Shown here: positions 1 to 34,627 of the stretch, piece after piece
Numbering within the stretch: position 1 is the first letter of the stretch
Layout of the letters: each line of letters starts with the position of its first letter
From: Minisyncoccia bacterium
GTDB taxonomy: Bacteria > Patescibacteriota > Minisyncoccia > Phycocordibacterales > PALSA-1337
Direction of reading: 5' to 3'
Length of the DNA stretch: 64,000 nucleotides
NCBI GenBank assembly: GCA_044228445.1
Contig: JBGAUV010000002.1
Coordinates: 140,600-204,599 of the forward strand
Program-made: the position numbers and the translations under genes
Notes under the pieces: generated by a model
Told to the model about the DNA's origin: nothing
Database searches by the model: none
Seen by the model: the letters and a program-made list of their open reading frames with translations, nothing else

Positions 1-112
1 CACGGCGTTGAACTGGTCTGAAGTCGTAAGAAGGGCTTACTTGGAGCAGAAAAGCGTACACAGGGGCGAACAGGTGGCAAGAAGGGGTAAGTTTGTTGCT
101 GGGTCGCTTCTC

Positions 113-934
113 TTATTTGAAATCACCACCACTTTCATTCTCAAATTCCTTTCTGTATTGCTTCCAGCCAACAAAGTTTCCTACACGCTCATTTTCACTA
201 AGCGCTTGGGCCACATGCTCGAAAGGACTCCAGTGTCCCGATGATGCCAATCGTTCGCAAAGTTTTACATCACTTTCAACATCAGATGGTTTTCCATCAA
301 ATAGGAAATAGCTAACTCGGGCAGAACGTGCCGCACTTATCTTTTTCTTGAGTTCCGCATCAAGTTTATTTTCTTCGCCCTTTACGAAAGGCAAATGCCA
401 TTCACCCACCTTAAGCTTATCTGGCTTGGTCGATTCGAATATATTTATGATCTGTTTTGCTACTACCTGAATCTCTGGTTGTGCCGCAGGGTTGTCACGA
501 AGTTTAAGAAAATTACCCCATTCGGTAGCAGTAAGAACGATCTCTGTCATGATCCAAGGCTCGATCAATCGATTCAGGATTTCTTTATGTAGACCAGCTT
601 TCTCACCAATGTAATGGAAGAAACAAGCCACATATCGGGACCAAAGCCACACACGTTTTATAACAAAAAGTCGGAATCCTGTGATGGCCTCACCTGATGC
701 CATGCCAGCTTTATTTTCCCCGAAATAAACTGGGATGAAAGGTGTCAGGAGTACACGTGCACGCATTTTCTTTGCAGGTACTGCACGGCTTGATGCTGCA
801 TTTCTTGAGAGTGATCGGTGACTATTGATGTGTGGTTGTATGAATTTTGGTACTTTCAAAACAAACGTTGCGATCTTTTTTCCAGTCGCTTCACATTCAG
901 AGAGTGCTATCAGTTTTGTAGTTATTTCATTCAT
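113..934 (-). CDS. ThyX-like (flavin-dependent thymidylate synthase family) protein, apparently circularly permuted
   Basis: N-terminal ~185 aa align to the C-terminal two-thirds of ThyX as I recall it: ATFVLKVPKFIQPHINSHRSLSRNAASSR ~ [31 protein letters not shown], and TATEWGNFLKLRDNPAAQPEIQVVAKQIINIF ~ [34 protein letters not shown]. C-terminal ~90 aa align to the ThyX N-terminus: ISAARSARVSY...SSGHWSPFEH ~ LSAVRAARVSF...KHGHETPFEH. ATGA start/stop overlap with the upstream gene at 931-934. Confidence 0.5.
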   Translation of the reverse strand: MNEITTKLIALSECEATGKKIATFVLKVPKFIQPHINSHRSLSRNAASSRAVPAKKMRARVLLTPFIPVYFGENKAGMASGEAITGFRLFVIKRVWLWSRYVACFFHYIGEKAGLHKEILNRLIEPWIMTEIVLTATEWGNFLKLRDNPAAQPEIQVVAKQIINIFESTKPDKLKVGEWHLPFVKGEENKLDAELKKKISAARSARVSYFLFDGKPSDVESDVKLCERLASSGHWSPFEHVAQALSENERVGNFVGWKQYRKEFENESGGDFK

Positions 935-2055
935 AACTTTTCAATGACATCAGTGACCATTTCTGGTACATCTACGAAGCCCGAGTCTTTGATGTTTGAA
1001 GTAGATGCATACAGGGCTGATCCATAAAGTAAGGCTATCGTTTTTTCTATTTCGATTGGCGTAGATTCATAGCGTTTACCCTTGAATGTGATTGGAAATC
1101 CGTTATTGATAAGAGTGATATTATTCCAACGAATATCGCCATGCACATTGTCGCTTGGTTGTGTGGCTCCATTTCTTAAAAAAGTTGCTGGAAATTCTCT
1201 GTCGGATGAGGACATGCTTATAAGATAGATGCCGCTTGTAATTTTCTTATCGAGTTTGGCGATTTGTTCTGGCGTTAGAATATTTTTTCCCGTAACTCCG
1301 ACGACAGTATTTATGCGATTTTTTACAATAAAATCGACAAGCTCTTTCTCTGAATGAAAAGCTGTATCATGTCCGGTTACAAAATATCCGGCTTCTTGAA
1401 GAATAAGCATGGTATTGTTGCCCATTGGTCCGAGTCCAACTACTAAAATGCGCGGTTCAGTTACATTGTATTTGCGTATTACGTCTTCGATGCGATCGCA
1501 GCCGAGGCGTGCAATAAGTGGGCTTTCTTTATCCAATTTTATTTTAGAACGAGCAACATTGATGATTGGGAAAGATATCGACTTATTCTCAAGTTTGCGA
1601 AAACCAGATGATGTCTGTTCAATACCGACAATTTTTACTGAAATTGGCAGTTTATCTTTACGCTCGTTGAAGATATTTAACAATTCAGCTCCGTCATCAA
1701 TAATAATTACTGTGCTGGTGTCACTCAGTTTTCCTATAAGCTTTGAAAACAAATCTTCACAATTTTCTCTGTGCTGGTCATCAAAGGAGATATTGGGATC
1801 GAATGCTGGTTGCTCTGCGTCGAACCCAGAATCTTGTAATTCTTTTAGTACTTCGGTATTGGTGGAATAGATTTTGCCAATAGTATGAATGTTTTCCTTA
1901 GGTATGCCGAAGTCGGAAAGGAGGGCGAACATTTTCTCTTGTGGCTCCATGAGGTGTTGACATGCGCAAATATGCACATCTTTCAGTGACTCGTTTTGTT
2001 TTGGGAAAGCATCGGTAATGGCTTTCAAAAGTGGATAATTGTAGGAGTCTTTCAT
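931..2055 (-). CDS. S-adenosyl-L-homocysteine hydrolase-like NAD(P)-binding Rossmann protein
   Basis: IVGIEQTSSGFRKL resembles the SAHH GVSEETTTGVHRL motif. NVARSKIKLDKESPLIARLGCDRIEDVIRKYNV..ILVVGLGPMG resembles SAHH [45 protein letters not shown]. GxGxxG dinucleotide fold. 4-nt overlap coupling to the ThyX-like gene. Confidence 0.45.
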   Translation of the reverse strand: MKDSYNYPLLKAITDAFPKQNESLKDVHICACQHLMEPQEKMFALLSDFGIPKENIHTIGKIYSTNTEVLKELQDSGFDAEQPAFDPNISFDDQHRENCEDLFSKLIGKLSDTSTVIIIDDGAELLNIFNERKDKLPISVKIVGIEQTSSGFRKLENKSISFPIINVARSKIKLDKESPLIARLGCDRIEDVIRKYNVTEPRILVVGLGPMGNNTMLILQEAGYFVTGHDTAFHSEKELVDFIVKNRINTVVGVTGKNILTPEQIAKLDKKITSGIYLISMSSSDREFPATFLRNGATQPSDNVHGDIRWNNITLINNGFPITFKGKRYESTPIEIEKTIALLYGSALYASTSNIKDSGFVDVPEMVTDVIEKL

Positions 2056-2203
2056 TTTTTAATGATATCACGGGGACGGATCAAATCCTTAATTTAAGCC
2101 CTTAGATAATAACATAAGTAGTTGACTTTGTAAAGTTTTTGTGCTAGTTTAACCTCAGTAATTTCCGAACGAAAAAACACTCAAAAAACGAAAGGACTTT
2201 GTC

Positions 2204-4066
2204 ATGAAAAAACAATACTGGCTGATTCCGCTTCTCCTGGTGGCATTCATCAGGGCGGAAATGGTCGTAACTCCCGCATGGGACAGTTACGGCAAACCGG
2301 AAATGATCACCTACAACGCCTCACGGCGTGTGTATGTTGATCGGACCAACCGGATGGAAAACTGGGCGATCGCATACCGCAACACCAGCGCAGAAACACA
2401 GAAAATCTACGAGGACTTGAAAAAGCCTTTGGAGATTCCGGCCAAGCGCAAGCTCGTTTTGAAGCTCCGGACAGATTTGTTCTGTGAACAAAGGAACTAC
2501 ACATGCGCAGGCATGATGTTCCTCTCGAAGCATTCTCAAAGACGGCGACTCGTTCTGATCAACGTCGAACGGAAAGCTGACTACGAGGCACAGTATCGGG
2601 TCTGGCCGCATCTTGGCATTCTCTCTGTCGGCACTGCTGCACATGAAGAAGGCTGGGAAGTTGTGCTCTGGGACGAACTTGTCCAAGGACATGCTCCTCT
2701 TGATAAGTTAATTCAGGAGGATGACATTGTCGGATTAAGTCTCATTGTCTCGGGCATTGAACGCGGCATCGATCTTGCTCATGAAGCCAAGGAACGTGGG
2801 GCTCGGTATGTCATCGCTGGAAACGATTCAGCAATCTTCCGAGCAAACCAACTCCTTCGGCTTCCCGACAAACCGATTGACGCGGTCTTCACTTCGAACA
2901 GCCTGAATGCGGTCCGTCGCTTCTTCCGAGAAATCAACAACACGGGCATTGAAGGTATCCGCATTGCCGACGTACAAACTACGCCGGATGTGCAGAATAA
3001 GTCCAATGAACGGAGTCAGTTACTCGTTGAGATGGGCGATCGCAAACAGCTCAAGGATAGAGGAAGGTTCGAATCGGATGATGTCTTCATTGTCCCGAAG
3101 CTCGATCTTTTCCCTGAATCCTACTGGCAGGAGGTCTGGACTAACTATCGGTCGCAGTTCGGGAAGAAACACTCGAACCCAACGACTGTAAAAAATGGTC
3201 TGGCGCTTCTCGCTCAGGGCTGCACCAGGACTCGAGGAATTGATGTGTGCAGGTATTGCAGCATCTACGGCGTTGGAGACCTTCGTTTCCCATACCGCAA
3301 ATACGTTGTGGACCTTGCTGAGACCCTGAAAAGTTTCGGCATCGATATGGTCTTCAATGCAACCGACTCGGCCTTCGAAATGCGTCCTGTAGTTCAATCC
3401 TTGATCGAGGAGAATATCCGCTTCAACGGCTTGGAAATATATGTACGAGCTCAAGGCATCGCTCGAGCTCCGCAGTTGCTCGAAGAATGGATGTCGGTCG
3501 TCAAAGACCGCTTCATTGTCAATTGCGGTATGGACTCCGGTGACGATACTTCGCTCAAGCAAGGCATTGTGAAGTCATCGGTTCGTGGAGGTTCGCGTTT
3601 CGGTGAGAATCGAGAAGCAGTCCTTAACCTCAAGAAAAGTGGGGCACATCTTCACTACTCGCTCATCTTCGGTTCGCCTGGAGAGACGAGGGATACATGC
3701 GAAAGAAGTATGGAGTTTCTTGAGTGGACGATCGATACCTTGGGGAATCAGTTGGATATCTGCGAAACAGATTACTTCTGGCTGAACTTCGGTTCACCGG
3801 CCGCGCAAGTCTTCCACGACTATTCCTACGCACAAGAGCTTGCTGCCATGGCTCAGAAGTCAATCTCAAGGGAGGAATGGGAAATCAACTTTGCAAGTGT
3901 CGCCGATGCACTATCTGTGCCTGACGATACGGAAAAAGCATGGTACCGATTCTTCACGAGGATTGATTACGATACTGCAACGGAATACAACGAACGAGCC
4001 AGGTTGCGAATGGAGAAGGTCACCGGTAGCATTCGTGGCCGAGCGTTCCTTCCGCCGGTAAGTTGA
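2204..4066 (+). CDS. radical SAM superfamily-like protein with N-terminal Rossmann/B12-binding-like region (non-canonical cluster motif)
   Basis: GCTRTRGIDVCRYCS gives a Cx8Cx2C triad where rSAM has CxxxCxxC. HYSLIFGSPGET matches the rSAM GxIxGxPGET-like motif. The upstream region LGILSVGTAAHEEGWEVVLWDE is Rossmann-like. RBS gaaagga lies 8 nt upstream. ~50% G+C by my count of a 200-nt sample. Confidence 0.4.
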   Translation: MKKQYWLIPLLLVAFIRAEMVVTPAWDSYGKPEMITYNASRRVYVDRTNRMENWAIAYRNTSAETQKIYEDLKKPLEIPAKRKLVLKLRTDLFCEQRNYTCAGMMFLSKHSQRRRLVLINVERKADYEAQYRVWPHLGILSVGTAAHEEGWEVVLWDELVQGHAPLDKLIQEDDIVGLSLIVSGIERGIDLAHEAKERGARYVIAGNDSAIFRANQLLRLPDKPIDAVFTSNSLNAVRRFFREINNTGIEGIRIADVQTTPDVQNKSNERSQLLVEMGDRKQLKDRGRFESDDVFIVPKLDLFPESYWQEVWTNYRSQFGKKHSNPTTVKNGLALLAQGCTRTRGIDVCRYCSIYGVGDLRFPYRKYVVDLAETLKSFGIDMVFNATDSAFEMRPVVQSLIEENIRFNGLEIYVRAQGIARAPQLLEEWMSVVKDRFIVNCGMDSGDDTSLKQGIVKSSVRGGSRFGENREAVLNLKKSGAHLHYSLIFGSPGETRDTCERSMEFLEWTIDTLGNQLDICETDYFWLNFGSPAAQVFHDYSYAQELAAMAQKSISREEWEINFASVADALSVPDDTEKAWYRFFTRIDYDTATEYNERARLRMEKVTGSIRGRAFLPPVS

Positions 4067-4083
4067 AGTTCTTTGATCACAAG

Positions 4084-4116
4084 GCCCTCTGGTTCACTCC
4101 GGAGGGTCTTTTTTCG
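4084..4116 (+). terminator. intrinsic terminator after the rSAM-like gene
   Basis: Hairpin CCCTCTGG-N6-CCGGAGGG (one G-U pair) followed by TCTTTTTT. Confidence 0.6.
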
Positions 4117-4133
4117 TGATAAAATGTAAAAAC

Positions 4134-4793
4134 ATGAAAGAAAAAGCCATTGAAATACTGACACAAGTCCAAAAAGATAACCCGTTCATTAAGTCTATTT
4201 ACCTCTGGGGATCGATTACGACAGACGAATATACTGAAGGAAAAAGTGATATAGATGCTATAGCTTTTGTTGAGGAAAACACAGATTCTTCTGCAAGAGA
4301 CAGGATCAATGAAGTTCTTAGTAAAGAAATTTCTAGTCTCAAGATTAATTTTCTTTATGAATCAGAGCTGAATGATGGTCCATCAAAAGGCGGTCTTACG
4401 AAAGTCATACATCCTGCAGTAATTCTTTATGATTTTCCTGCATGGATTTATATAGATGGTGCTCAGTATAGAAAAGAAGATTTTAGTTCAGGTAGAACCT
4501 CATTAGATGAAGTTATAGGTATTTTAACAAACACGATTAAGGACAGGTTCCTACCTATTCCAAACGAGCAGGATTGTGTTTATTTTGTAAAAGCAGTAGC
4601 AAAACTTTTATATTTCAAAAATCAGAGAAGCTTACCATTCAAAGCATTTCGGTATGCTGACTTGATCGTTGATTCTAATGTGGAGGACAAAGATATTGCA
4701 GTTATTATTAGTGAGCTAAAGAAATCAAGTTGGAATCGACAGTTAATAGCTGAAAAAGCACCAGAAATTATTTCTTTTGTTAACCGTCTATAG
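4134..4793 (+). CDS. Pol-beta superfamily nucleotidyltransferase, ANT/AadA/Lnu-like
   Basis: YLWGSITTDEYTEGKSDIDAIAFV matches the GS...[DE]hDhhhhV nucleotidyltransferase signature (compare AadA HLYGSAVDGGLKPHSDIDLLVTV). The track start at 4116 is GTG; ATG at 4134 (MKEKAIEIL) is more likely. Confidence 0.55.
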   Translation: MKEKAIEILTQVQKDNPFIKSIYLWGSITTDEYTEGKSDIDAIAFVEENTDSSARDRINEVLSKEISSLKINFLYESELNDGPSKGGLTKVIHPAVILYDFPAWIYIDGAQYRKEDFSSGRTSLDEVIGILTNTIKDRFLPIPNEQDCVYFVKAVAKLLYFKNQRSLPFKAFRYADLIVDSNVEDKDIAVIISELKKSSWNRQLIAEKAPEIISFVNRL

Positions 4794-4865
4794 ATTTTGA
4801 ATTTGGTAACTTATGGAGTATACTAGGGGTGTTAAAGAGATAGAGGTGGTCCCTTTCTGTAACCT

Positions 4866-5066
4866 ATGAATATGAAAGACAAATTTTTCAAATTTTACGC
4901 CAATCTTCCTATGAATCTTCGTAAGGAGATTGTTTTAGATTTGGGTGCAGACCAAGGTGGTCCTATCACTTGGGAAGTGGCCTATAGAGAAATAGATGCT
5001 GATACAGATTTGGGTAAAAAGATACTTGAAAAATTAATCGAGCTTAAATTCATTCCTACTGAATAA
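4866..5066 (+). CDS. small hypothetical protein (66 aa), paralog of the next ORF
   Basis: RBS agaggtgg upstream. Shares a GKK(I/L)LE/IE..L C-terminal motif and overall pattern with ORF 5070-5306. Confidence 0.4.
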   Translation: MNMKDKFFKFYANLPMNLRKEIVLDLGADQGGPITWEVAYREIDADTDLGKKILEKLIELKFIPTE

Positions 5067-5069
5067 ATT

Positions 5070-5306
5070 ATGAATCAAAATGTAACAAACAATCCAGTAG
5101 AATTAAACCAGGATATCATCAACTTGGTTATTGCTCGTTTGAAGACTATTCCCTCAAACGCAACCCTTTCTGTTGGTAGTGATAAAGAACCGATGTCAGC
5201 AGAAGTTCTTATTGAGGAAGTAAAGAAACAAACTGAAATTGGTAAGAAGCTTATTGAATCACAACTCTTTTTCTTGCGCTCTCTGCAGGATTTACCTGTA
5301 GCCTAA
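5070..5306 (+). CDS. small hypothetical protein (78 aa), paralog of the previous ORF
   Basis: Starts 4 nt after the previous stop. EIGKKLIESQLF resembles DLGKKILEKLIEL of the neighbour. Confidence 0.4.
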   Translation: MNQNVTNNPVELNQDIINLVIARLKTIPSNATLSVGSDKEPMSAEVLIEEVKKQTEIGKKLIESQLFFLRSLQDLPVA

Positions 5307-5314
5307 TATGATTT

Positions 5315-5938
5315 ATGTCACTTCTTATCACTCGCCCAAAATATGAATTGGTCACTCACTATTTCTACCATTGGAGTGAGGAAATTGTAAAAGAAGCTAA
5401 GAAAAGGATATCGAGCGTTATTGATCTTCAAAAAGAGAAGGCTTCTCGAAAACTTGTCGATAGTTATCTTGAGAAACAAAAGCCGGAGATAGCTATTTTC
5501 AATGGTCATGGCAATGATGTATGTATCACAGGACACAATCAAGAGGTCCTTATTGAGTCTGGTAAAAACTCTCACTTACTTAAGGACAAAGTTGTATATA
5601 TGCGCTCATGTGACTCTGGCAAGACGCTCGGACCACAGGCTATAAAAGAGGGCTGTAAGGCATTTATCGGTTATCGAGAACCTTTTAATATTTGGACAGA
5701 CAGAACGTCAGTCAATGAGCCTTTGAAAGATACATACGCTAAACCTTTCTTTGAAACTTCAAACGAAGTGCCACTTTCTCTAATCAAGGGCAAGACTGCC
5801 CGGGAAGCTCATAATGAAAGCATGACTGCATACCGTAAAGTTATCTCTCATCTGCTTACAAGCAATGCTGAAAACTCATTCGTAGTATCTGACCTTATTT
5901 GGAATATGCATAACCAGGTGTGTTTGGAGAAAAATTAG
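5315..5938 (+). CDS. hypothetical protein with His-Gly...Cys dyad reminiscent of clan CD (caspase-like) peptidases
   Basis: IAIFNGHGND and VVYMRSCDSG: each candidate catalytic residue follows a hydrophobic strand, His then Cys, ~35 aa apart. Assignment is tentative. Confidence 0.25.
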   Translation: MSLLITRPKYELVTHYFYHWSEEIVKEAKKRISSVIDLQKEKASRKLVDSYLEKQKPEIAIFNGHGNDVCITGHNQEVLIESGKNSHLLKDKVVYMRSCDSGKTLGPQAIKEGCKAFIGYREPFNIWTDRTSVNEPLKDTYAKPFFETSNEVPLSLIKGKTAREAHNESMTAYRKVISHLLTSNAENSFVVSDLIWNMHNQVCLEKN

Positions 5939-6432
5939 TGATGCATACATTTCTTAAAAAAGATTCATTGGATAGTTGGAATACATTGCCGCCGGTGCCA
6001 ACTGAAAAAATTATAAATGTAAATTGTCACAAATTTGTCTTATGCGAGTTAGGAAAAATTACTTGGGACAATATGGTCTCTGAGAGTAGGGACGAAGATT
6101 TCACTTTTGGTGAGAAAATTCGAGGTATATCAGATCTTTCTTATAGGCATATAACCACTCTCGAATCATTACTGTCACTTGCTGGTGAGGTGTGTAACGT
6201 CGGCAAGATTTACATTGGTCAAATCCGAGACTCGCAAACGGGAGAGATGGCACATTCATTTATTGTTGATGTGCAGCAGAATAATCATTATGTGTGCTTT
6301 GATAAGCCGGGGTTTAAATATCCCTTTCAAGTCAGCAATCTTGAGGAAATCTGGGGCTTCGTCAATAAAGATGGTGAGAGGTCAAATCAAAATCAAGAAT
6401 GGAGATTTATACCAATCGAGGAAGTGAGGTGA
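5920..6432 (+). CDS. hypothetical protein (170 aa)
   Basis: ORF overlapping the previous gene by 19 nt. No recognisable motif. Confidence 0.4.
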   Translation: MFGEKLVMHTFLKKDSLDSWNTLPPVPTEKIINVNCHKFVLCELGKITWDNMVSESRDEDFTFGEKIRGISDLSYRHITTLESLLSLAGEVCNVGKIYIGQIRDSQTGEMAHSFIVDVQQNNHYVCFDKPGFKYPFQVSNLEEIWGFVNKDGERSNQNQEWRFIPIEEVR

Positions 6433-6556
6433 ATATTGCGAACATTGTGCACTTTATCGGGTAAGCACGGCACTTAGGGATTGCAGAGCAAATTTAGTAT
6501 AATCCTTAACACCCGCCAGTTCTGAAAGCCAAGTTGAGGGGTCATGCAATAAAAAC

Positions 6557-6590
6557 AAAGGGCATCTATGATGCCTTTTGTTTTTGTTGC
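6557..6590 (+). terminator. intrinsic terminator
   Basis: AAAGGGCATC-TAT-GATGCCTTTT followed by TGTTTTTGTT. Confidence 0.55.
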
Positions 6591-6885
6591 ATATGATTCT
6601 ACTGGAGATGAGAAGGCCGGACTGAGCGAAGGCGAAGGAGGCGGGGTCGACAGCCGAGCTAGCAGGCGAGGACTAGTGACCGATTCCCTGCAGGGTCACG
6701 ATTGACTTTTATAAAAAGTATGCTATTATTTTAATGCTAGTTCTTTGATTATTTGTCATAGCTGAAAGTGACTTAATTTGTAGGTAATTTTCGGCTATGA
6801 CAAAACCGTGATTGCGGCAATGTCATCTTGTACAAAAAATGGTATTCCTTTCAAGGATACGCCAACAAAGTGAAAGACTAAACCA

Positions 6886-7638
6886 ATGAATGGTACAGCT
6901 GATAAGGTGGAAATTGAAGAAGTTGATCTGTGTGATGATGGAAGGAGCTTGCCAGGGACAGAGTTGTCCTTAGCACACTCACTTTTCTGTGCACTGCGAG
7001 ACGAAGGTTTTGATGAAAGTGACATTGGTAAGCTTGTAAAAGCAAAGCCTGAGTTGCTCGGGTATATCCTCGGATTTCTACGAGGAGAAGTTCAACTTCA
7101 CGATATTCCTTGCGAACTTGTAAACCTGGACAAACATCCTGGTATTAAGCGTGACAAGAAAAAGAAAATCAACTTGTTCAGGGATCTCAGATTGGGTACA
7201 TGGCTCACGGATTGGTCTGACGGGATAAAAATCGCTGGCAAGTATGTTGACATTGTTCGCCCGAGGGGATTAGGTCTGCAGAGCCGTGGCTTTTTTACCC
7301 GAAGTACACTCAATCCTGAAAAAAACAGGGATGAGTATTGTATCGACCTAAATGCGCAGGCGGCAAAGTGGTTCTATGAGAATCACAAAGACGCAACCCG
7401 TAACTTCTTTGAGTGTGTAGGTCGTATAGCGAAATCCGACGAATGGAATGATGATAAAATCTTCTTTTTGGGAACACTTTGGTCAGTGGATGGAGTAGCT
7501 CATGCCATGGCTTTGGTATCGGATAGTGAAGGTTATATTTACTGTCGACTCGAGCCACTTCCAAGTGGTGATTGGCCAGAGAACTGCTATATTGCTGTTC
7601 TGGTTGATAACCTAGAAGTGCTTAAGAGTTACAAGTAG
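6886..7638 (+). CDS. hypothetical protein (250 aa), GC-rich ORFan
   Basis: Long ORF with no recognisable motif. G+C clearly above backbone. Confidence 0.4.
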   Translation: MNGTADKVEIEEVDLCDDGRSLPGTELSLAHSLFCALRDEGFDESDIGKLVKAKPELLGYILGFLRGEVQLHDIPCELVNLDKHPGIKRDKKKKINLFRDLRLGTWLTDWSDGIKIAGKYVDIVRPRGLGLQSRGFFTRSTLNPEKNRDEYCIDLNAQAAKWFYENHKDATRNFFECVGRIAKSDEWNDDKIFFLGTLWSVDGVAHAMALVSDSEGYIYCRLEPLPSGDWPENCYIAVLVDNLEVLKSYK

Positions 7639-7674
7639 CGCTTCATAAGTTGAAGAACTTATTAAAATCTTCAA

Positions 7675-7702
7675 GCCACACCCCGATAGGTGTGGCTTTT
7701 AT
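7675..7702 (+). terminator. intrinsic terminator
   Basis: GCCACACC-CCGATA-GGTGTGGC followed by TTTTATC. A second small hairpin ATAAGTT-GAAG-AACTTAT sits at 7644-7662. Confidence 0.55.
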
Positions 7703-7774
7703 CATATTTAATTTTGCTATAAACAAAGACAATAATTTTTATTTATGCTAAATTAATTTAATACATAAACTAAC

Positions 7775-8374
7775 ATGCCCCAAAAACCCATTATAGCCAT
7801 TGATATTGATGATGTTCTTGCAGAAAATGCTCGTGGTTTTGTGGAATGGAGTAATAAAAGGTTTGATACTAGTTTAACTCCTGATGATTATAATGAACAT
7901 TGGTCTGAAATGTGGAAGATTGACAATGAAGAATTAGAAAAAAGAGCACATGAATTTCGTAACTCAGATCATGTTAGTGCATACAGTGCAATTCCGGGAG
8001 CTAAACAAGCTTTAGAAATACTTAAGACTAAATTCACACTTATTCTTATCACAAGTCGTGTGGCTACAATGAAAAATTTAACAAAAGAATGGATTGAAAA
8101 AAATTATCCAAATATCTTTAGTGACTATATCTTTTGTGGTTTTTATGATGGTCCTGTGTCCAGTGGTTTAAAATTAACAAAAGCAGAATTTGCAAAAGAT
8201 ATAAAAGCTGATTATTTAATAGATGATCAAGTTAAGCATGTGGAAGCATGTTCAAATCTAGGAATTAAATCATTATTATTTGGTAATTATTCTTGGAATA
8301 AGGATGTAAAGCTAAATAATAATATAACTAGGGTAAGTGATTGGGGAGAGGTGTTGAGATATTTTAATTTATAA
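7775..8374 (+). CDS. HAD-superfamily 5'(3')-deoxyribonucleotidase-like phosphatase
   Basis: N-terminal IAIDIDDVLA (DxDxV HAD motif I, like NT5C DMDGVLAD). ~200 aa. Confidence 0.55.
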   Translation: MPQKPIIAIDIDDVLAENARGFVEWSNKRFDTSLTPDDYNEHWSEMWKIDNEELEKRAHEFRNSDHVSAYSAIPGAKQALEILKTKFTLILITSRVATMKNLTKEWIEKNYPNIFSDYIFCGFYDGPVSSGLKLTKAEFAKDIKADYLIDDQVKHVEACSNLGIKSLLFGNYSWNKDVKLNNNITRVSDWGEVLRYFNL

Positions 8375-8382
8375 AACAAAAC

Positions 8383-8414
8383 TCGCGTAGAAGCCGAAGC
8401 ATTCTACGCGAGGG
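8383..8414. terminator. hairpin between convergent genes (mainly a minus-strand terminator)
   Basis: CTCGCGTAGAA-N9-TTCTACGCGAG. A- and T-rich run (AAAACAAAA on the plus strand) lies immediately 5' of the hairpin, giving a U-run in the minus orientation. Confidence 0.5.
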
Positions 8415-8418
8415 TTGG

Positions 8419-8703
8419 TCAAAGGAGTCTGCCGATTTTAGCTTCAATTGACCTAACCACATCAGGGTGTGGGTAATTCTCAGTGATAGCAGTAGCAATG
8501 ACTGCTGCAATACCGCCAGTTGCCCAGTACTTCCAAAAACTAATTTTGTACTGGCCACTTACTGGATCAAATTCAACCCAGTTTTTTGAATTCTTACTTT
8601 TGAACTTAGGTTCTGTCATTGTTCCTTTGACAGTGAGTCCGAATTCCTTCGCAACCTTCCCCAGCTGTTCCTTGCTGAGGACCGACTTTTGAGTTGTTTT
8701 CAT
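8419..8703 (-). CDS. hypothetical protein (94 aa)
   Basis: ORF with the terminator immediately downstream. No known motif. Confidence 0.35.
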   Translation of the reverse strand: MKTTQKSVLSKEQLGKVAKEFGLTVKGTMTEPKFKSKNSKNWVEFDPVSGQYKISFWKYWATGGIAAVIATAITENYPHPDVVRSIEAKIGRLL

Positions 8704-8837
8704 CGTTCTTTTTTTACCGCCACATACTATATAACATATTTCAGGATATAAGTCAATGTTAGATTTTACCTTATTTATTAATCATTTTATAACAATAATA
8801 TTTAATATATAATGTATACAATACTTTTTTAAATAAA

Positions 8838-9455
8838 ATGAATAAGAAATATTTTTTAATTCCCATATTTTTAATCATTGGTTTTATTGCAATATATTTC
8901 TTTACAAATAAGCCTATTATTAAAAACTATCCTCCAAAGAGTCAGACTATTATTGCATTCGGAGATAGCCTTATTAGAGGAACTGGTAGTACATTAGGTA
9001 ATGACTTTATTTCTCTTTTATCAAAAAAATTAAATAAAAATATAATAAATGAAGGTATACCTGGTGAAACTACTAGTGATGCTTTAAATAGAGTTGATGA
9101 AATTATAAATAAAGACCCAGGAATTGTTATTTTATTATTTGGTGGCAATGACTATTTAAGAAATAGACCTCAAACAGAGACTTTTAGTAATTTAAGACTT
9201 CTGATTAAAAAATTACAGGATAATGGTAGTATGGTCATTCTTTTAGGGATTAGAGGGGGACTTTTGGTGGATAAATTTAGCTCTGATTTTGAAAAATTGG
9301 CAGATGAAACTGGTGTTATTTTTATACCAAATGTTCTTGAGGGTCTCATAGGTAAACCAAAGTATATGTCTAGTGATAATATTCACCCAAACAATGAAGG
9401 ATATGCAAGGATTGCTGATAAGGTCTATAATAAAATTAATAAATACATTAAATAA
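8838..9455 (+). CDS. SGNH/GDSL-family hydrolase (lipase/esterase-like), membrane-anchored
   Basis: AFGDSLIRG (GDSL block I), LLFGGND (block III), DNIHPN (DxxH block V). N-terminal TM helix. Confidence 0.8.
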   Translation: MNKKYFLIPIFLIIGFIAIYFFTNKPIIKNYPPKSQTIIAFGDSLIRGTGSTLGNDFISLLSKKLNKNIINEGIPGETTSDALNRVDEIINKDPGIVILLFGGNDYLRNRPQTETFSNLRLLIKKLQDNGSMVILLGIRGGLLVDKFSSDFEKLADETGVIFIPNVLEGLIGKPKYMSSDNIHPNNEGYARIADKVYNKINKYIK

Positions 9456-9974
9456 ATGAAAAAAATATTTTTTATATTAATTACGATTGTGGTACTTATT
9501 TCAGGTGTTTTTTACTATAATAAATTAAATACAGGTTATAAAGTCGTAAATAATAAACTTCATCATTTTTCTTTTAAATACCCAAGTTCATGGAAAATAA
9601 TTGGAAGTGGTAAAACAATTGAACAATCTAGTTTTGTAAGTGTTATAGGTAATAATATTTCTTTTACAATAACTCAATATGATAATACTAAAGGCTATAC
9701 ACCTAAACAGTGGTATGAAAGAGATACAATAGAAAAATTAGGACCTAATAATTATCCATATCCGGAAAAACTTGTTGCAAGTACTCAGAATACTATTTTA
9801 AATGGATACAATGCATATAAGGTAGTTACAAATGATGCAGGTGCTAGTTATGACTATTTTTTATCAAAAGGAAATGAAATATACGTAATTAATATAGAAA
9901 GAAACGATACGATTGATTATTCAAAAAATCAAAGATATATAGATGATATTTTAAACAGTCTGTCTTGGAATTAA
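9456..9974 (+). CDS. hypothetical membrane-anchored protein (172 aa)
   Basis: Starts immediately after the GDSL hydrolase stop. N-terminal TM helix. Confidence 0.45.
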   Translation: MKKIFFILITIVVLISGVFYYNKLNTGYKVVNNKLHHFSFKYPSSWKIIGSGKTIEQSSFVSVIGNNISFTITQYDNTKGYTPKQWYERDTIEKLGPNNYPYPEKLVASTQNTILNGYNAYKVVTNDAGASYDYFLSKGNEIYVINIERNDTIDYSKNQRYIDDILNSLSWN

Positions 9975-10064
9975 TTATTTAAAATGAATAAATTGACATA
10001 AAATAAAAAAGTATTATCCTTTTTGTAGAAGTACAAAAAATCAAAACAACTAAAAGGAGGAAAT

Positions 10065-10931
10065 ATGGAAAAAGATGAAAGGGAGGATTTTCTATTAAAG
10101 AGCTATCTAAATGATGTCCGTGATTACAATCTCATTTCCAGAGATAGAGAGGTTCAACTCGCTCAAGAAATAGCAAAAAGAAATAACGAAGCAAGAAATG
10201 AACTTGCTCTAGCAAATGTACGTTTAGTGATAAAAATCGCTATGGACTTTGACGGCTATGGTCTTTCTATTCATGACTTAATCCAAGAGGGTAACACTGG
10301 TCTCATGAAGGCTGTTGATAGATTTGACCCAACTAAGGGTGCAAAGTTTTCTACTTATGCAGCTTGGTGGATCAAACAGGCAATTAAAAGAGCTTTAAGT
10401 AACTCAGGATTTACCGTAAGGATTCCAGTTCATCTCGTGCAGTCAATTTCTAATTTGAATAGATTCAGAGAAAAATTTGAGAAGGAAAATAGAAGGTTAC
10501 CAAATGATGATGAAATTAAACAAGAACTAGGTCTTGTTGCTGATACAGTTGACGCAGCAAAGACCGTGCGAAATGGTAGAATATCACTTGATTCAAAATT
10601 TGGTGAAAGTGAGATAAGTCTTTCTGATATTCTCGAGGATGAAACATCTATCAATCCATCTTCTGCTAATGAGCTAGATGATCAACTTTCTAATTTAGCT
10701 GATCTAGTTAATAGATTAAGTAACAGAGAAAAAAACATAATCGAGTGTCGTTTTGGTCTTAATGGCAAAGAACAGATGATACTTGATGATATCGGTAAAA
10801 TTTATGGAATAACCCGAGAGAGAGTTAGACAAATTGAGGCAAAAGCACTTAAGAAGTTGCGGAATTGGCTTGATAAAAAGAATTCCGAAGTAGATCTTGA
10901 TTTGCCACCAGCAGTCTACAATGTTGGATAA
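10065..10931 (+). CDS. rpoD: RNA polymerase sigma-70 family factor (compact, 288 aa)
   Basis: Region 2 (DLIQEGNTGLMKAVDRFD, STYAAWWIKQAIKRAL). Region 4 HTH (LDDIGKIYGITRERVRQIEAKALKKLR). Strong RBS aaaggagg upstream. Confidence 0.85.
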   Translation: MEKDEREDFLLKSYLNDVRDYNLISRDREVQLAQEIAKRNNEARNELALANVRLVIKIAMDFDGYGLSIHDLIQEGNTGLMKAVDRFDPTKGAKFSTYAAWWIKQAIKRALSNSGFTVRIPVHLVQSISNLNRFREKFEKENRRLPNDDEIKQELGLVADTVDAAKTVRNGRISLDSKFGESEISLSDILEDETSINPSSANELDDQLSNLADLVNRLSNREKNIIECRFGLNGKEQMILDDIGKIYGITRERVRQIEAKALKKLRNWLDKKNSEVDLDLPPAVYNVG

Positions 10932-10943
10932 AACATACACAAA

Positions 10944-10971
10944 CAGCCTGACTACGTCAGGCTTGTTTTTA
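10944..10971 (+). terminator. intrinsic terminator after rpoD
   Basis: CAGCCTGAC-TAC-GTCAGGCTTG followed by TTTTT. Confidence 0.6.
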
Positions 10972-11130
10972 TATATAAAATAAGACTAAAAAGAGCGATT
11001 TTATCCACAGTTTTAGCTTGCTTTACTTTTTATCTTATGTATGGTATACTCTCTATCAGACGTTTGCAGTACATTGCAAACAAAAAATATTGCTTCGTCC
11101 CTAAGACGAAGCGCAACCAAAGGATAAAGA

Positions 11131-12078
11131 ATGAAAAAGTTCACGGCGATTGTCGTGACATTGTTCACGGCAATCCTTTCCCTTGCGCTCGTCGCAAGGG
11201 GACAAGCACCTGCGGGTGCTGCGGGTGCCATTGTGGTGCCACCGGTGTTCCCGGAGTTCCTGCCAATCGGAGACGAGTGGCAGATGAAGGACTGGGCGGT
11301 GACTAACCGTCAGTTCCGGATGAACGGAAACCCTTACAATGTGTCGACAATCTGGAGTATTGAGTATACTGAGGGTAATGGCTCTACTAGTACAATGGGA
11401 GCATCATCTTCAGGATACAAGTTTCTAGACTGGGATGACTTCATGCATACAGCTCAGAAGATCGGTCTCGATCTTCTGAGGCGCGTAAAGGCTACAAATA
11501 CTTTTGATAATACCAAAACCATGAAGTTCTCAGTGATTCATGGTTATGACAACATTGTCGCTCGAAAGGGTGTCAATGCTGTATATATCCGTAAGGATAT
11601 TGGTCTTGTTGAAGGTGTTGGTCCAGAATCATTTTTGGATGAAACGGGATTGATACTCCTTCAAGGAGTGGTTCGTGTTGATGGTCTTGAGAAGTTCGAA
11701 GTGACCACTAATGGTGGGTACTCTTGGACTGAGAGACCTGTACAAGACTACTTCGTCCTTAAATTTAGTGATCTTGAATCCGGGAATCCTATCCGGTACA
11801 GGGTTACTGCTAAAGGACAGTCTCAGGTTTACACCCAGACCGGAGATAAACTGTCTCAACCTACAGTCAGAGTTTTGAACGATAAAGTGATCGTTCTATA
11901 CAAGACTCCTGGTTCCAAGACTAGGATCGAGTATAAAAACTCTTTTGATGGTGAATGGGTCATTATGAAGGAGTTTCCCTCAACTGACTTGAGCCAGTAC
12001 AAAGAGATACTGAACTATCCACCAGAAATCGGTTCCGGTGGAGTCAGTATAAGGCTCTTCCGAGCCTCGTCGGAATAA
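11131..12078 (+). CDS. secreted hypothetical protein (315 aa), GC-rich
   Basis: Signal-peptide-like N-terminus MKKFTAIVVTLFTAILSLALVA. The 5' UTR holds a perfect hairpin GCTTCGTC-CCTAA-GACGAAGC at 11091-11111. Confidence 0.5.
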   Translation: MKKFTAIVVTLFTAILSLALVARGQAPAGAAGAIVVPPVFPEFLPIGDEWQMKDWAVTNRQFRMNGNPYNVSTIWSIEYTEGNGSTSTMGASSSGYKFLDWDDFMHTAQKIGLDLLRRVKATNTFDNTKTMKFSVIHGYDNIVARKGVNAVYIRKDIGLVEGVGPESFLDETGLILLQGVVRVDGLEKFEVTTNGGYSWTERPVQDYFVLKFSDLESGNPIRYRVTAKGQSQVYTQTGDKLSQPTVRVLNDKVIVLYKTPGSKTRIEYKNSFDGEWVIMKEFPSTDLSQYKEILNYPPEIGSGGVSIRLFRASSE

Positions 12079-12090
12079 ACGAGGTCAAGC

Positions 12091-12124
12091 AAAAAGGGCG
12101 TTACTTGCGTAACGCCCTTTCTTC
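12091..12124. terminator. bidirectional intrinsic terminator between convergent genes
   Basis: AAAAA-GGGCGTTAC-TTGC-GTAACGCCC-TTTCTTC. Confidence 0.65.
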
Positions 12125-12142
12125 TATCATTTTATAAACTAA

Positions 12143-15100
12143 TTAAATTTCACCTGCATTTGATATTCTGAGTAAGGCTGTATTACTAAATTCATCTGGA
12201 ATCATTGGGTCTGCGCTAACACATTTCAAATAGAATGAGTATGTACCTGTTTCAGCTATCTTAGCTTCAAGTCCTAGTGCACTACCGTTTTTGCTATTAT
12301 TAAACCAATTCCATACAGCAGAACCATCGCTTCCATCTGGTTTAATTGTAACTGATGTACAACTATATCCACTCAAGTTATTACTCTTCCACGCTAGATT
12401 GAATGTTCCTGTTGGACCTACTTTGTAAGGTACTACTGCTTTTGGATCTCCGACTACAGGTGTTGTAATTGGCTTATCTATTACTCCAGAGCCACCAATA
12501 AATAATTTAATATTTGGATTAGATGTCACTATTGGAGGTGCAGGAGGTGGAGGATTCTGTCCATTGTTACCTCCTCCGCCGCCACCATTAATTGGATCTG
12601 GTGGAGGTGGTGGAGGAGCAGGTGATGTTACTGTTAATGTTACAGAGTTACTATTTATTGTTGGCGAGTTAGCTTTTGTACATGTGATAGAAAATATATA
12701 TGAACCATCAACTATAGATGAAAGGTTTGTTGGTAAAGAAGTGTTTGTACCAGTTATTGAACCTCCCCAAGCCCATATGCTATTTCCACTACTACCATCA
12801 GGTTTAACATTATTAAATGAACAACTATATCCAATAGGTGGGTTAGCCATTGTCCACTGCAAACCAAATGTATCACCTCTAACAACACTTGTAGAAGGAC
12901 CATAACTTACATCAACTGATTTTTTTATACCAAGACTTAGATTTGAAACGGGACAACCAATTGTAGTTACTTTAGGCGTTATGACACTTGCAACTGGTGA
13001 TGAAGCTAATGTCTTACCTGAAACTACAGCACTAATAACATAGTTATACTTTGTGCCAGTATTAAATACGGGATATTTTTCTGTATTCATTGTTGCAGAG
13101 CCAGATAGGGTATATGTTGCATCAATTTTGTTAATTACTGTATTTAATCTAGTTATTGTATATGAACTAGCATTTGGTATCGGACTCCATGTTTGACTTA
13201 CCCATAATTCAAGCGGTGTACATTTATCAGAAGAAGGTGTTACTGTAAATTGATAGTTCGGAGGAATAATAGGAGCGGGTTGAATTATAATCTTTACTGT
13301 ATTGCTTGATACTATATTTCCATTTGAACAAGATATATTGAGTGTATATGTTCCAATTTCAAGACCTGTAGTTTCCAAACTATTTGCTTGACCATTTATT
13401 TCGGTTCCATATGACCAGATTGAATTGTTTATATTACCAGTAGGCATTGTTGTCTTTTGGTCACATACGGTATAGTCGGGAGTCAAGTTGCTTGCCCATA
13501 GTAAATCAAATTTTTCACCAGAAACAACAGTCGCTGAATTATTCATACTTGATACCGAAGTTTGATAGGTATAGTTTGAAAAGTTAATATTTGAATCTGT
13601 GCTCTTTTTTATAAACAACTTGATTGATTTTGCTACTCCGACTGGACAACCCTCAAGTGGAGCGATTACTGATATTTGTGGAGAAGCTTGTTTTTCTATT
13701 CCACCAACAATAGCTGTAACTTTATAGTAATATTTTTTTCCGGTTTCAAATGTAAAGGTAGGATATACCTCAGTATTTTCTGTTCCTGTAACACTAAATA
13801 TTACCGTTTCTGGTGTACTATCCTTAATTCTGTATAGTTTGTATGAGGTAGCTCCTGGTACTGGACTCCACTTTTGTTTTATCCAAATATCATTTGCTGA
13901 ACATTGGTTTGAAGAAGTTGTAACTGTAAAATTATATACAGGAGGAAGTTCATTTATTGTTATTCTTGAAACATTACTTGTAACTGTATTTCCAGCGGTA
14001 TTTGTACAAGACAGCATTAGCTTATATGTACCGTATGGTTTATTTTGACTTGAAAGACCTGTAACTATTGAATTAAGTCCCGTACCATAAACCCAAAGAC
14101 TATTATTTGTATTATTATTAACATCCTGTGTTGCTTGTCTACATGTATAGTCAGGAGTCAAGTTGCTTACCCATCTTATGTCAAAAGTTTTTCCGGCAAA
14201 TAGACTTACATCGGTATTGGATGCAGAAGTAGTTGTTGTTAATGAATAATTAGACAAGTCTTTTGTCATATCAGTTGATTCTTTTGCAAATAGTTTTATT
14301 GATGGTGAAGCAACACTTTGTGGGCAATTTGCTCCAGTTAAGACTGTTGGTGAGAATGCAAAAACAGAAGGGGATAGTGCCTGCTCTGCTCCAGAAATTA
14401 CAGCTGAAACTTTATATTCATAAAGTTCACTAAATGAAAGTATTTTATCTTCAAATGTAATCTTTCCTGCAACCATATAGTATGGAGTGGTTGTGCTATA
14501 TACTTTTTCAGGTTCGTTCGTGTGCATTCTATAAAGTCTATATGAACTTGCTCCTGGAATTGGACTCCAACTTGCAGTAATTTTTAAATCACTCAAATTA
14601 CAACTATCTGCACTTCTGATTGCTGTAAGGTTATATGGTAATGGCGTAGATTGAACGCTTATATTATATGTTGTTGAGTGTGATATTGTTTGTCCACCAG
14701 TAGTTACAGTTGTGTTTATTGGAACAGAATTACAAGTAAAACCAGTTCCTATATTGTACGGATCACCGTTTATTGTATATCCGCCAGCACCACAACCATA
14801 AGGACCTGTCGCTACAGCTATTCTCTGATTTGCTATCATATCCTTACCTTGATCACCTAATATTTTAGTACCAGTAGATGTTAAACAATCTCCATCATCG
14901 TATTGAATACATTTAACTGAAAATTGTCCACCGTTATTGTAGTCGCTACTTGGAGAAAAACCTGAATCCTTACTACAACCAAAATAGAAACCGTTATACA
15001 TTGTAGGAGAGTTATCATGTGTCCAGTCTACCTTACAATAATAAACATATGGTGTGGTATTTGTTGTTGTAACTACTGTTGTACCTTGTTTTGTATATGT

Positions 15101-33652: not shown

Positions 33653-34282
33653 ATGTCCCAAGGATTACATCTTTTACAGTCTCTAAAGCACTCCCTTTCT
33701 CTAAACCAATTTATTGGCGAAAGAAGTGGAGATATTCCAGTTTATTCTTTACACAGAATTAGAACCTGTGTTGCATCCTCACCATTACCTGTGAGTGCAG
33801 AGGTACAGGTTATGTTTTTGCGTGAGGTGATTATCGCCAACAATACTTATCGTGAAGAAAGTGGTAATGATTGGTATTGTCTTACATCGATTAACTTAGT
33901 TTCTGCTCTTGAAGGACTAGAGGCAAGGTTGAAAGAGGTAAATGATCTTGCATTAGAAACATTACCTAAAGGAGTTAAGGATGTTGTTGAACGTGTCCTG
34001 ACTAATGCACGTATAAAGTGCATTCACGATATTCGTGATTGGTTTGAAGCTAATTACGATGATCTTCTGTACAACATGAAAGGCTCAATTCCTTGGCCAA
34101 TTGTACAGAGACTTCGGCGGAGTCTCAGAGCCTGGTCATTTGGTATTGTTGATCCATTCGGGCAAGATATCGAAGATATGGTAATTGAAGTTGCCAAAGA
34201 ACAGGGTCACCATTGTGATGATGCTGAGTCAGCATGGAAAGCAATGGGCGGAAAGATTCTCGGTAAGACAGATAAAAGATGA
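33653..34282 (+). CDS. hypothetical protein (209 aa), GC-rich ORFan
   Basis: ORF with elevated G+C. No known motif. Confidence 0.4.
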   Translation: MSQGLHLLQSLKHSLSLNQFIGERSGDIPVYSLHRIRTCVASSPLPVSAEVQVMFLREVIIANNTYREESGNDWYCLTSINLVSALEGLEARLKEVNDLALETLPKGVKDVVERVLTNARIKCIHDIRDWFEANYDDLLYNMKGSIPWPIVQRLRRSLRAWSFGIVDPFGQDIEDMVIEVAKEQGHHCDDAESAWKAMGGKILGKTDKR

Positions 34283-34297
34283 GATCTGTCATCAAAA

Positions 34298-34336
34298 GTC
34301 CCGTACTACATTAACTTGTGTACGGGTCTTTTTTTA
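34298..34336. terminator. hairpin terminator between convergent genes
   Basis: CCCGTAC-N13-GTACGGG followed by TCTTTTTTTATTT. The loop region can pair further. Confidence 0.55.
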
Positions 34337-34342
34337 TTTGAA

Positions 34343-34597
34343 CTATTTATTCTTAATTGATTCTAGCAGTGGCGTTATAACTCTATCTAGTAGGATATCT
34401 TTTCCTAAATATGTTGTTGGCTTTTTTAAATATTTTTCCCAAACAAAAATTACTTTTTCTGTTACATAAGAAATGTTTTGTCTCGTTTCAGGCTTTTCTA
34501 AAGCCTTTCTGACATCAAAACCATAATACCCTAGTATGATAAGTACAATAAGTATAAGTATTATCCAATTTAGAAAACCGCCTTGTTTATTTTTCAT
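34343..34597 (-). CDS. small membrane protein (84 aa)
   Basis: One TM helix WIILILIVLIILGYYGF. Confidence 0.4.
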   Translation of the reverse strand: MKNKQGGFLNWIILILIVLIILGYYGFDVRKALEKPETRQNISYVTEKVIFVWEKYLKKPTTYLGKDILLDRVITPLLESIKNK

Positions 34598-34627
34598 ATT
34601 TTAATTTTAGCACGCTTTAAAATGCGA

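Follow-up and report, generated by a model that had tools for sequence, protein, structure and literature searches.

The window analysed here is a stretch of 64,000 nucleotides (nt) from a Minisyncoccia bacterium (assembly GCA_044228445.1, contig JBGAUV010000002.1, positions 140,600 to 204,599 of the forward strand). Its chromosome segment is low in G+C and carries the genes for DnaK, RpoA, aminoacyl-tRNA synthetases and a sigma-70 factor; its left end belongs to an island of foreign appearance. The first three genes of the window had been described, in an initial annotation made from the sequence alone, as one putative C-methylation cassette. All three are real. Two lie on the minus strand and encode a circularly permuted ThyX-like protein of 273 amino acids (aa; 113..934), putatively a phage-type flavin-dependent thymidylate synthase, and a divergent protein of 374 aa (931..2055) with the fold of S-adenosyl-L-homocysteine hydrolase (SAHH) and a Rossmann motif of the nicotinamide adenine dinucleotide (NAD) type. 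The third, on the plus strand, encodes a 620-aa radical S-adenosylmethionine (SAM) protein with a B12-binding-like domain and a hydrophobic N-terminus (2204..4066). Database matches of the island genes named Patescibacteria (Paceibacteria, Tayloriibacteriota).

Against a host background of 31.4% G+C over 12.1-64 kb (1942-nt windows: sd 3.1%, max 38.7%), the radical-SAM block (2173-4114) has 50.5% G+C (z = 6.2) and the block with the SAHH-like and ThyX-like genes (88-2172) 40.1% (z = 2.8). The figure of about 50% formerly given for positions 1-4120 is right for the first of these blocks, but not for the second. The G+C content of third codon positions (GC3) is 0.14-0.25 in host genes and 0.35-0.41 in most island genes; it amounts to 0.35-0.36 in the SAHH-like and ThyX-like genes and to 0.57 in the radical-SAM gene. 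The initial annotation was correct in that the island is foreign and runs off the left edge of the window, but it does not stop at 4120. Positions 4115-7700 still have 38.9% G+C, and the elevation ends at about 7650, before a host-like NT5C gene (GC3 0.18). The left flank was read from a 52-kb Logan contig (L001), which carries the exact ThyX-like protein and is identical to the window over positions 1-2213. Past the window edge, 42.2% G+C persists for a further 5.9 kb up to a serine recombinase and then gives way to 30% at the host gene murF. The island is about 13.5 kb long, bounded by the recombinase, and adjoins the cell-division (dcw) gene cluster.

Leftward of the ThyX-like gene, the gene order comprises proteins of 401 aa, 101 aa (DUF5659), 452 aa (with a Walker A motif), 198 aa and 74 aa, followed by the recombinase of 563 aa and, at 30% G+C, by murF, ftsI, ftsL and rsmH. 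The 563-aa protein, encoded 4-6 kb left of the window, is a large serine recombinase (Resolvase and Recombinase domains; phrog_95 at 2.5e-50). No PHROGs or Pfam assignment was obtained for the backbone proteins of 401, 452, 198 and 74 aa; the element therefore cannot be called a prophage. In its terminal recombinase, its insertion beside a housekeeping gene, its G+C step, its conserved backbone with variable cargo, and an identity between hosts that exceeds that of host genes, it resembles integrative elements and prophages mobilized by large serine recombinases. Unlike these, it has a very small size of about 13.5 kb, genes for capsid, terminase or conjugation proteins were not recognized in it, and its backbone proteins of 401, 452 and 198 aa match no family. 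A repeat search of positions 1-13000 yielded short repeats at chance level only and no att-like terminal repeats. Scans of the window for tRNA genes and Rfam families gave no matches; it therefore contains neither a tRNA integration site nor a riboswitch.

Comparison by blastn with four contigs holding sister elements (L072-L075) reveals a modular architecture, with homology breaking at 87/88, 2172/2173 and 4114/4115. The backbone from -5842 to 87 matches at 77-78% nt identity; its portion inside the window (1..87) is a spacer that separates the 401-aa gene from the cargo cassette. The radical-SAM module (2173..4114, plus strand) matches at 86% with sharp homology ends, and it also forms a Logan contig of its own (L004, 1923 nt, equal to 2185-4107). 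Positions 88..2172 and everything from 4115 onward are without counterpart in L072-L075, except for a piece at 6429-6699 (76% nt) in L074 and L075. The interval 88..2172 is thus a swapped-in cargo cassette of 2.09 kb on the minus strand, comprising the SAHH-like gene, the ThyX-like gene and the promoter region. Its slot in L072-L075 is filled, between the conserved flanks, by about 2.8 kb of other genes, and the segment to the right of the radical-SAM block holds GrpB and NYN genes instead. The radical-SAM proteins of L072-L075 (P0503, P0504) are 92-93% identical to that of the window and are encoded in the same recombinase element without the SAHH-like/ThyX-like pair. A fifth contig (L076) likewise has the radical-SAM gene and the same upstream cargo without the pair, and ends short of the backbone. 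A more distant copy of the element, in a Tayloriibacteriota metagenome-assembled genome (L005), contains the backbone and the pair and no radical-SAM gene. Three cargo combinations are accordingly found: radical-SAM gene only (L072-L076), pair only (L005), and both (this window). We also considered that the radical-SAM gene had been inserted late and in this element only, and rejected this because the sister elements carry the gene as conserved cargo.

Between the window and L072-L075, the proteins of the element share 84-93% identity, whereas those of the host on its flanks share only 39-56% (murF 53%, GDSL 56%, sigma factor 39%). The element has therefore moved between hosts, and the pair and the radical-SAM gene travel on a small recombinase element. 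Its position varies as well: it adjoins murF in the window, in L072 and in L005, and uvrC in L074.

The ThyX-like protein matches the Pfam family Thy1 (PF02511) with 48.4 bits, above the cut-off of 24.8, where residues 22-171 correspond to profile positions 59-190; the thyX equivalog TIGR02170 scores 49.9 bits, under its cut-off of 87.9. The permutation stated in the initial annotation holds true. In a phmmer search against the PDB, the match to Thermotoga maritima ThyX was non-collinear: residues 197-272 align to ThyX 31-103 and residues 114-171 to ThyX 152-211. The permuted motif order is present in 107 of the 120 top homologues, the canonical order in none. The ThyX motif (RHRxxSxxxxSxR) here reads S-H-R-S-L-S-R-N-A-A-S-S-R, with H39, R40, S43, S48 and R50 invariant; R146 (R174 in T. 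maritima) and H234/E239/H240 (H53/E58/H59) are invariant in the family, too.

Relatives of this protein are abundant in phages. The phrog_85 profile "thymidylate synthase" matches at 9.5e-57, and 1033 cultured phage records were matched in INPHARED, 1001 of them with collinear alignments that cover 80% or more of the query. N4-like phages, ICP1 and rV5-like phages are among the phages matched, and the annotation of many of the proteins reads thymidylate synthase or ThyX-like. The AlphaFold model (pLDDT 91.8) superimposes on the BFVD entry A0A0B5A4Q6 with a TM-score (TM) of 0.89 and a root-mean-square deviation of 2.3 over 270 columns at 36% identity. Judging from sequence and predicted fold, the protein is a member of the known phage "N4 gp30-like" family of putative thymidylate synthases (phrog_85). 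Homologues of N4 gp30, beside a dCMP deaminase, have been annotated as putative thyX since 2009 (PMC2784036). With the phage proteins (Schitoviridae, ICP1, rV5-like, Pakpunavirus, phiCbK-like) it shares full-length collinearity at 32-42% identity, the permuted segment order, the conserved motif residues and the near-identical predicted fold. It differs in its setting, a small recombinase element in a Patescibacteria-type chromosome, and in its coupling (fusion in relatives) to an SAHH-like gene that is absent from the INPHARED phages. A very common phage "thymidylate synthase" family, present in more than 1000 cultured phages, is a circular permutant of ThyX. Our literature searches found no description of a permuted ThyX, and no structure of the permuted phage family was found in the PDB.

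With canonical ThyX (PF02511; T. maritima TM0449) the protein has in common the Thy1 domain, the H-R...S...S-x-R motif, the Arg that polarizes dUMP and the His/Glu/His of the FAD/folate site. Unlike canonical ThyX, it has residues ~60-220 first and ~1-100 last, a C-terminal second copy of the motif that is degenerate, a Ser/Thr in place of the first Arg of RHR and a TIGR02170 score below cut-off; the Foldseek superposition on canonical ThyX structures is only partial, over about 150 columns. The longest PDB alignments, 213-216 columns at TM 0.46-0.48, were obtained with PolB of polyoxin biosynthesis (4p5a), a ThyX-homologous C5-methylase of UMP/dUMP and like our protein of the ThyX flavoenzyme fold; most ThyX chains gave TM 0.34-0.45. 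PolB differs in being non-permuted and in its nucleoside-antibiotic gene context, and it was not among the matches of the phmmer search against the PDB.

The SAHH-like protein was assigned by family profile and fold search, no Pfam family being matched. Its family profile hits SAHH entries of the PDB at 3e-10, and the model (pLDDT 91.6) has SAHH or SAHH-like proteins as all of its top 50 PDB matches in Foldseek (E values down to 9.9e-15, TM 0.60-0.74). In common with S-adenosyl-L-homocysteine hydrolase (AhcY) and the archaeal S-inosyl-homocysteine hydrolase it has the two-domain fold (Foldseek E 1e-14, TM ~0.7), as well as the DDG, E-x-T-x-x-G and N-V..K motifs and the GxGxxG with its following acidic residue. 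Invariant in the family and aligned by HMMER to SAHH motifs are G207-L-G-P-x-G212, D230, H34, D120/D121, K173 and E177. Equivalents of His55, Asp131, Lys186 and Asp190 (human numbering), the redox and ribose residues of SAHH, are conserved along with the GxGxxG motif. Unlike these enzymes, the protein is about 55 residues shorter, shares only 15-20% identity, and displays conserved motifs of its own (CQH, EQTSSGFRKLE, SSSDREF, NNGFPITFKG). A profile of the C-terminal half gave no significant alignment to SAHH (E 0.22).

The family is large, with 656 clusters at 50% identity (E <= 1e-30), and was found neither among the cultured phages of INPHARED nor, by a pattern scan, in IMG/VR. The commonest neighbours of its genes are SAM methyltransferases, to which the SAHH-like domain is also fused in P0405, P0448 and P0451. 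Two contigs hold operons without a ThyX-like gene, namely SAHH-like-SHMT-thymidylate kinase (Tmk)-MazG (L025, 136-3985) and SAHH-like..SHMT-FolD (L045, 1-3511). Further domain combinations comprise a fusion to a histidine kinase and receiver (P0419, 778 aa), possibly a ligand sensor, and one to a NUDIX hydrolase (P0415, 514 aa). Weak matches of two fusion proteins to the Pfam family HcgC were judged to reflect generic Rossmann-fold similarity and were set aside.

The pair is physically coupled. As had been annotated, the two genes overlap in an ATGA stop/start (931..934, minus strand), where the junction reads ...AAG TTA TGA in one frame and ATG AAT GAA in the other. In an alignment-based scan of genome contigs, which relied on two peptide patterns, 47 SAHH-like loci were collected; a scan with the SAHH-like protein as single query gave no matches. 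A ThyX-like gene lies directly 3' of the SAHH-like gene in nine of these 47 loci (a 650-aa fusion included), and 38 are without a ThyX-like neighbour, these counts being lower bounds. Three SAHH-to-ThyX fusion proteins (P0204, P0206, P0217) are only 58-65% identical to one another. An independent fusion in the order ThyX-to-SAHH (P0422) shares 54% and 35% identity with the two proteins of the window; genes for a SET methyltransferase and an AdoMet decarboxylase lie beside it. The SAHH-like and permuted ThyX-like genes truly form a functional unit, as shown by their translational coupling, by the conservation of their adjacency and by fusions in either order. Our literature searches found no link between ThyX and SAHH in Patescibacteria; the pairing is new, and the rest is of known kinds. 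A promoter-like site 5' of the SAHH-like gene lies inside the cassette (2106..2134, minus strand; TTTACA-17-TATTAT with TG). It is a consensus match only; three such promoter-like sites were found against 6.3 expected from shuffles.

The nearest relatives of the pair, at 88% and 76% identity, adjoin a serine recombinase and have no radical-SAM gene; those at 88% have a 163-aa gene 3' of the ThyX-like gene. Beside one pair, a serine recombinase of 533 aa is encoded (L068, 3905-6185), and at the same locus of L071 (3929-5530) only a 46-aa open reading frame (ORF) was called; the recombinase may be decaying, or the difference may reflect a gene-calling gap.

The radical-SAM protein scores 33.9 bits with the radical-SAM core family PF04055 (cut-off 29.5) and 20.4 bits with the B12-binding family PF02310, under the cut-off of 32.1; some homologues have a precomputed PF02310 match. 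Its invariant cysteines C340, C349 and C352 form a Cx8CxxC motif instead of the canonical CxxxCxxC. NCBIfam models of class B radical-SAM enzymes matched weakly, all far below cut-off, and no informative PDB relative was found by sequence or profile. With the class B cobalamin-dependent enzymes (HpnR, PhpK, ladderane-associated, HpnJ) the protein shares the succession of an N-terminal Rossmann-like B12-type domain and a radical-SAM core. Unlike these, it has the Cx8CxxC motif and a hydrophobic N-terminal anchor, and its family is Patescibacteria-wide and without a solved relative. The module is closed by an intrinsic-terminator-like hairpin (4081..4110, plus strand; 12-bp stem and T run). More distant homologues (58-76% identity) stand alone among housekeeping genes and are richer in G+C than their flanks in two of three cases, which hints that the family moves horizontally as a single gene. 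The two cases are those of L052 (8001-9860; 47.6% G+C against 37-38% in the flanks) and L057 (8001-9857; 52.5% against 32-42%).

With moderate confidence, we read positions 1-7650 as the cargo-bearing end of a ~13.5-kb integrative element with exchangeable modules, namely a one-carbon/thymidylate pair and an independent radical-SAM gene. The anatomy of the element, its modularity and its mobility between hosts, the family memberships of its proteins and the physical coupling of the pair are the observations on which this reading builds. The large serine recombinase would mobilize the element, which is inserted beside murF in a low-GC, Patescibacteria-type chromosome. The first module (88-2172) would be a self-promoted two-gene operon, in which an SAHH-fold enzyme of NAD type is translationally coupled to a permuted ThyX-like protein. 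The latter would form dTMP from dUMP with flavin adenine dinucleotide (FAD) and methylene-tetrahydrofolate (CH2-THF). Its partner would be a divergent hydrolase of S-adenosyl- or related nucleosyl-homocysteine, which would keep a linked methyl or one-carbon cycle running and salvage the nucleoside. The cassette may thereby provide a portable one-carbon/thymidylate supply for a metabolically reduced host or for the element itself. The second module (2173-4114) is a separately inherited, probably membrane-anchored radical-SAM enzyme with a B12-like domain, acting outside the pathway of the pair. Given that the SAHH-fold family is repeatedly fused or co-operonic with ThyX-like proteins, SAM methyltransferases, SHMT, FolD and Tmk, these associations represent a testable link from the SAM cycle to thymidylate synthesis in organisms of minimal metabolism.

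Several points weigh against this reading. Both enzymatic activities and the physiological role are ones that we infer. The SAHH equivalogs score far below their cut-offs (NF004005 31.5 bits against 275, TIGR00936 27.2 against 497.6). Glu156 of SAHH aligns to the invariant Q147, and motif inspection (SSSDREF, NNGFP, HLMEPQ) suggests that the equivalents of His301 and His353 and the adenine-contacting positions of Thr57 and Glu59 are changed. The SAHH-like protein may thus act on a different nucleoside, or may not hydrolyse at all. In the partner, the first Arg of RHR is Ser/Thr across the whole permuted family. Cultured phages carry the ThyX-like gene without an SAHH-like partner, and a plain hydrolase of S-adenosyl-homocysteine (SAH) has no obvious need for fusion to a folate-dependent thymidylate synthase. 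Furthermore, the counts from the 47-locus scan may be biased.

Since the fusions run both ways, there is room for a tighter and novel partnership. A possible, though rather improbable, alternative is a two-component or fused novel thymidylate synthase, in which the permuted ThyX-like protein depends on the SAHH-fold protein as an obligate partner in catalysis. The SAHH-fold protein might pass reducing equivalents from NADH to the flavin, or handle an adenosyl-based one-carbon donor or by-product (SAM/SAH) in place of the canonical chemistry of folate and NADPH. Fusions in both orders, kept through 58-65% divergence, agree with such a role, as does the translational coupling; in L025 the SAHH-like gene, grouped with SHMT and Tmk, takes a place in which one might expect a gene for thymidylate synthase, and SAHH-like proteins recurrently have methyl-transfer enzymes as partners. 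Along this line, the His positions specific for hydrolases appear replaced in a protein that retains the redox Lys, the acid residue and the NAD motif. However, the same permuted ThyX family works or is retained in more than 1000 phages without an SAHH-like gene, the equivalent of the folate-stacking His53 is invariant in the paired clade, and 38 of the 47 SAHH-like loci are without a ThyX-like neighbour. In addition, Patescibacteria have folate enzymes (L025, L045; PMC11974145). Less probable still is the stronger proposal that the two proteins constitute an unrecognized thymidylate synthase of Patescibacteria working via an adenosyl/NAD-binding subunit. Such an enzyme would use, e.g., SAM-derived carbon with SAH removed on site, or electron transfer from NADH to flavin, and not the ping-pong of free NADPH and CH2-THF.

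It is unlikely, to a slightly greater degree, that the product of the pair is not dTMP but a pyrimidine nucleotide or nucleoside with a modification, with the SAHH-fold enzyme performing 3'-keto sugar chemistry. Examples of such products would be a PolB-like 5-methyl-UMP, a hypermodified base precursor for the DNA of the element, or a nucleoside signal or antimetabolite. PolB is among the best PDB fold matches with the longest alignments, the SAHH-like family does not conserve the residues by which SAHH contacts the base, NUDIX domains occur as fusions and neighbours, and the pair resides on a mobile element. The analogy to PolB and nucleoside antibiotics, which the initial annotation had drawn, is not supported by the gene context: no partners like PolA/NikO or PolH were found in the window, in L001 or in the pair loci, and no glycosyltransferase, kinase or DNA-modification genes in any pair locus. 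By sequence, the PDB search returned T. maritima ThyX and not PolB, and the protein belongs instead to a large phage family annotated as thymidylate synthase. PADLOC found no defence-system match among ten island proteins. Many host phages of the ThyX-like family, e.g., the N4-like ones, are not known to carry modified thymine.

Very little speaks for the original proposal of a single C-methylation or tailoring cassette of radical-SAM, SAHH-like and ThyX-like genes, co-regulated from a shared spacer. The radical-SAM gene does diverge from the pair across a spacer of 148 nt (2056-2203), as had been noted, and all three families use or relate to SAM or one-carbon chemistry. The SAHH-like/ThyX-like pair survives as a unit, but the radical-SAM gene finds no support as its third member, the genes having proved independent in each comparison made. 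Not one of the 47 SAHH-like loci has a radical-SAM homologue within 10 kb; the pair lacks this gene in its closest relatives; and the gene occurs without the pair in chromosomes and, as copies of 92-93% identity, in sister elements of the same family. The homology breakpoint at 2172/2173 falls exactly between them, where G+C changes from 40% to 50.5% and GC3 from 0.36 to 0.57. As the pair occurs elsewhere without the radical-SAM gene, the three-gene cassette is unsupported. Its appearance arose by chance, through the shuffling of cargo on a mobile element, and false operons of this kind are worth recognizing in genomes of the candidate phyla radiation (CPR).

An assembly chimera joining different organisms is the least probable account of the G+C steps: Logan assemblies do break at ~2185-2213 and ~4107, as expected in an assembly graph when a shared block is flanked on either side by cargo that differs between copies. 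The 29-mer at the Logan break is unique within the window. Contigs assembled independently from other samples cross all three junctions (L001-L003 and L061 at 87/88, 2172/2173 and 4114/4115; L001-L003, from three samples, reach 41 nt into the radical-SAM block, and L061 crosses 4114/4115), so that the steps are not chimeric, and four other assemblies hold the radical-SAM gene in the same recombinase element.

To the right of the radical-SAM module, further island cargo extends over 4116..7638 on the plus strand, with 34-45% G+C and a GC3 of 0.37-0.41. The exception in GC3 is a nucleotidyltransferase (NTP_transf_2; 4116-4793, GTG start), whose value of 0.25 is host-like though the gene lies inside the island; it has a weak MntA-antitoxin-like match, and no HEPN partner was recognized. 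ORFs of 207 aa (5315-5938), 170 aa (5920-6432) and 250 aa (6886-7638) and two small ORFs make up the remainder. A homologue of the 170-aa ORF (55% aa identity) is located directly 3' of the ThyX-like gene in L005 (11966-12481). In the window this ORF lies 5 kb from the ThyX-like gene and beyond the radical-SAM gene; the cargo has therefore been rearranged. The 163-aa gene directly 3' of the ThyX-like gene in L064-L067 (L064, 4654-5145) resembles the 170-aa ORF in size and has the same position as the homologue in L005; these proteins, of 163-171 aa, have no family assignment. The ORF-free stretch 6433-6885 contains a 24-nt inverted repeat (6752-6804; 83% complementary, 5-nt loop), and the segment 6429-6699, which covers part of this stretch, is kept at 76% nt identity in L074 and L075.

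Three observations concern the remainder of the window. An ORF of 610 aa (62004-63836, minus strand) combines LeuRS-type pieces (the end of the editing domain, tRNA-synt_1 and the anticodon-binding domain) with a NUDIX domain at residues 44-170. At the N-terminal end this ORF starts within the editing-domain profile, so that the gene may extend further upstream or be split. Around 34000-35000, gene orientation shifts from mostly plus to uniformly minus, together with a peak of the cumulative GC skew (2.43); the pattern is convergent and resembles a terminus, but gene strand alone may account for it. A second gene of foreign appearance (315 aa; 11131-12078, plus strand) comes after the host sigma factor and thus outside the island; it has 46% G+C and a GC3 of 0.475, and no Pfam or PHROG family was matched. 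It is followed 3' by a 17-nt inverted repeat that forms a hairpin at 12088-12125.

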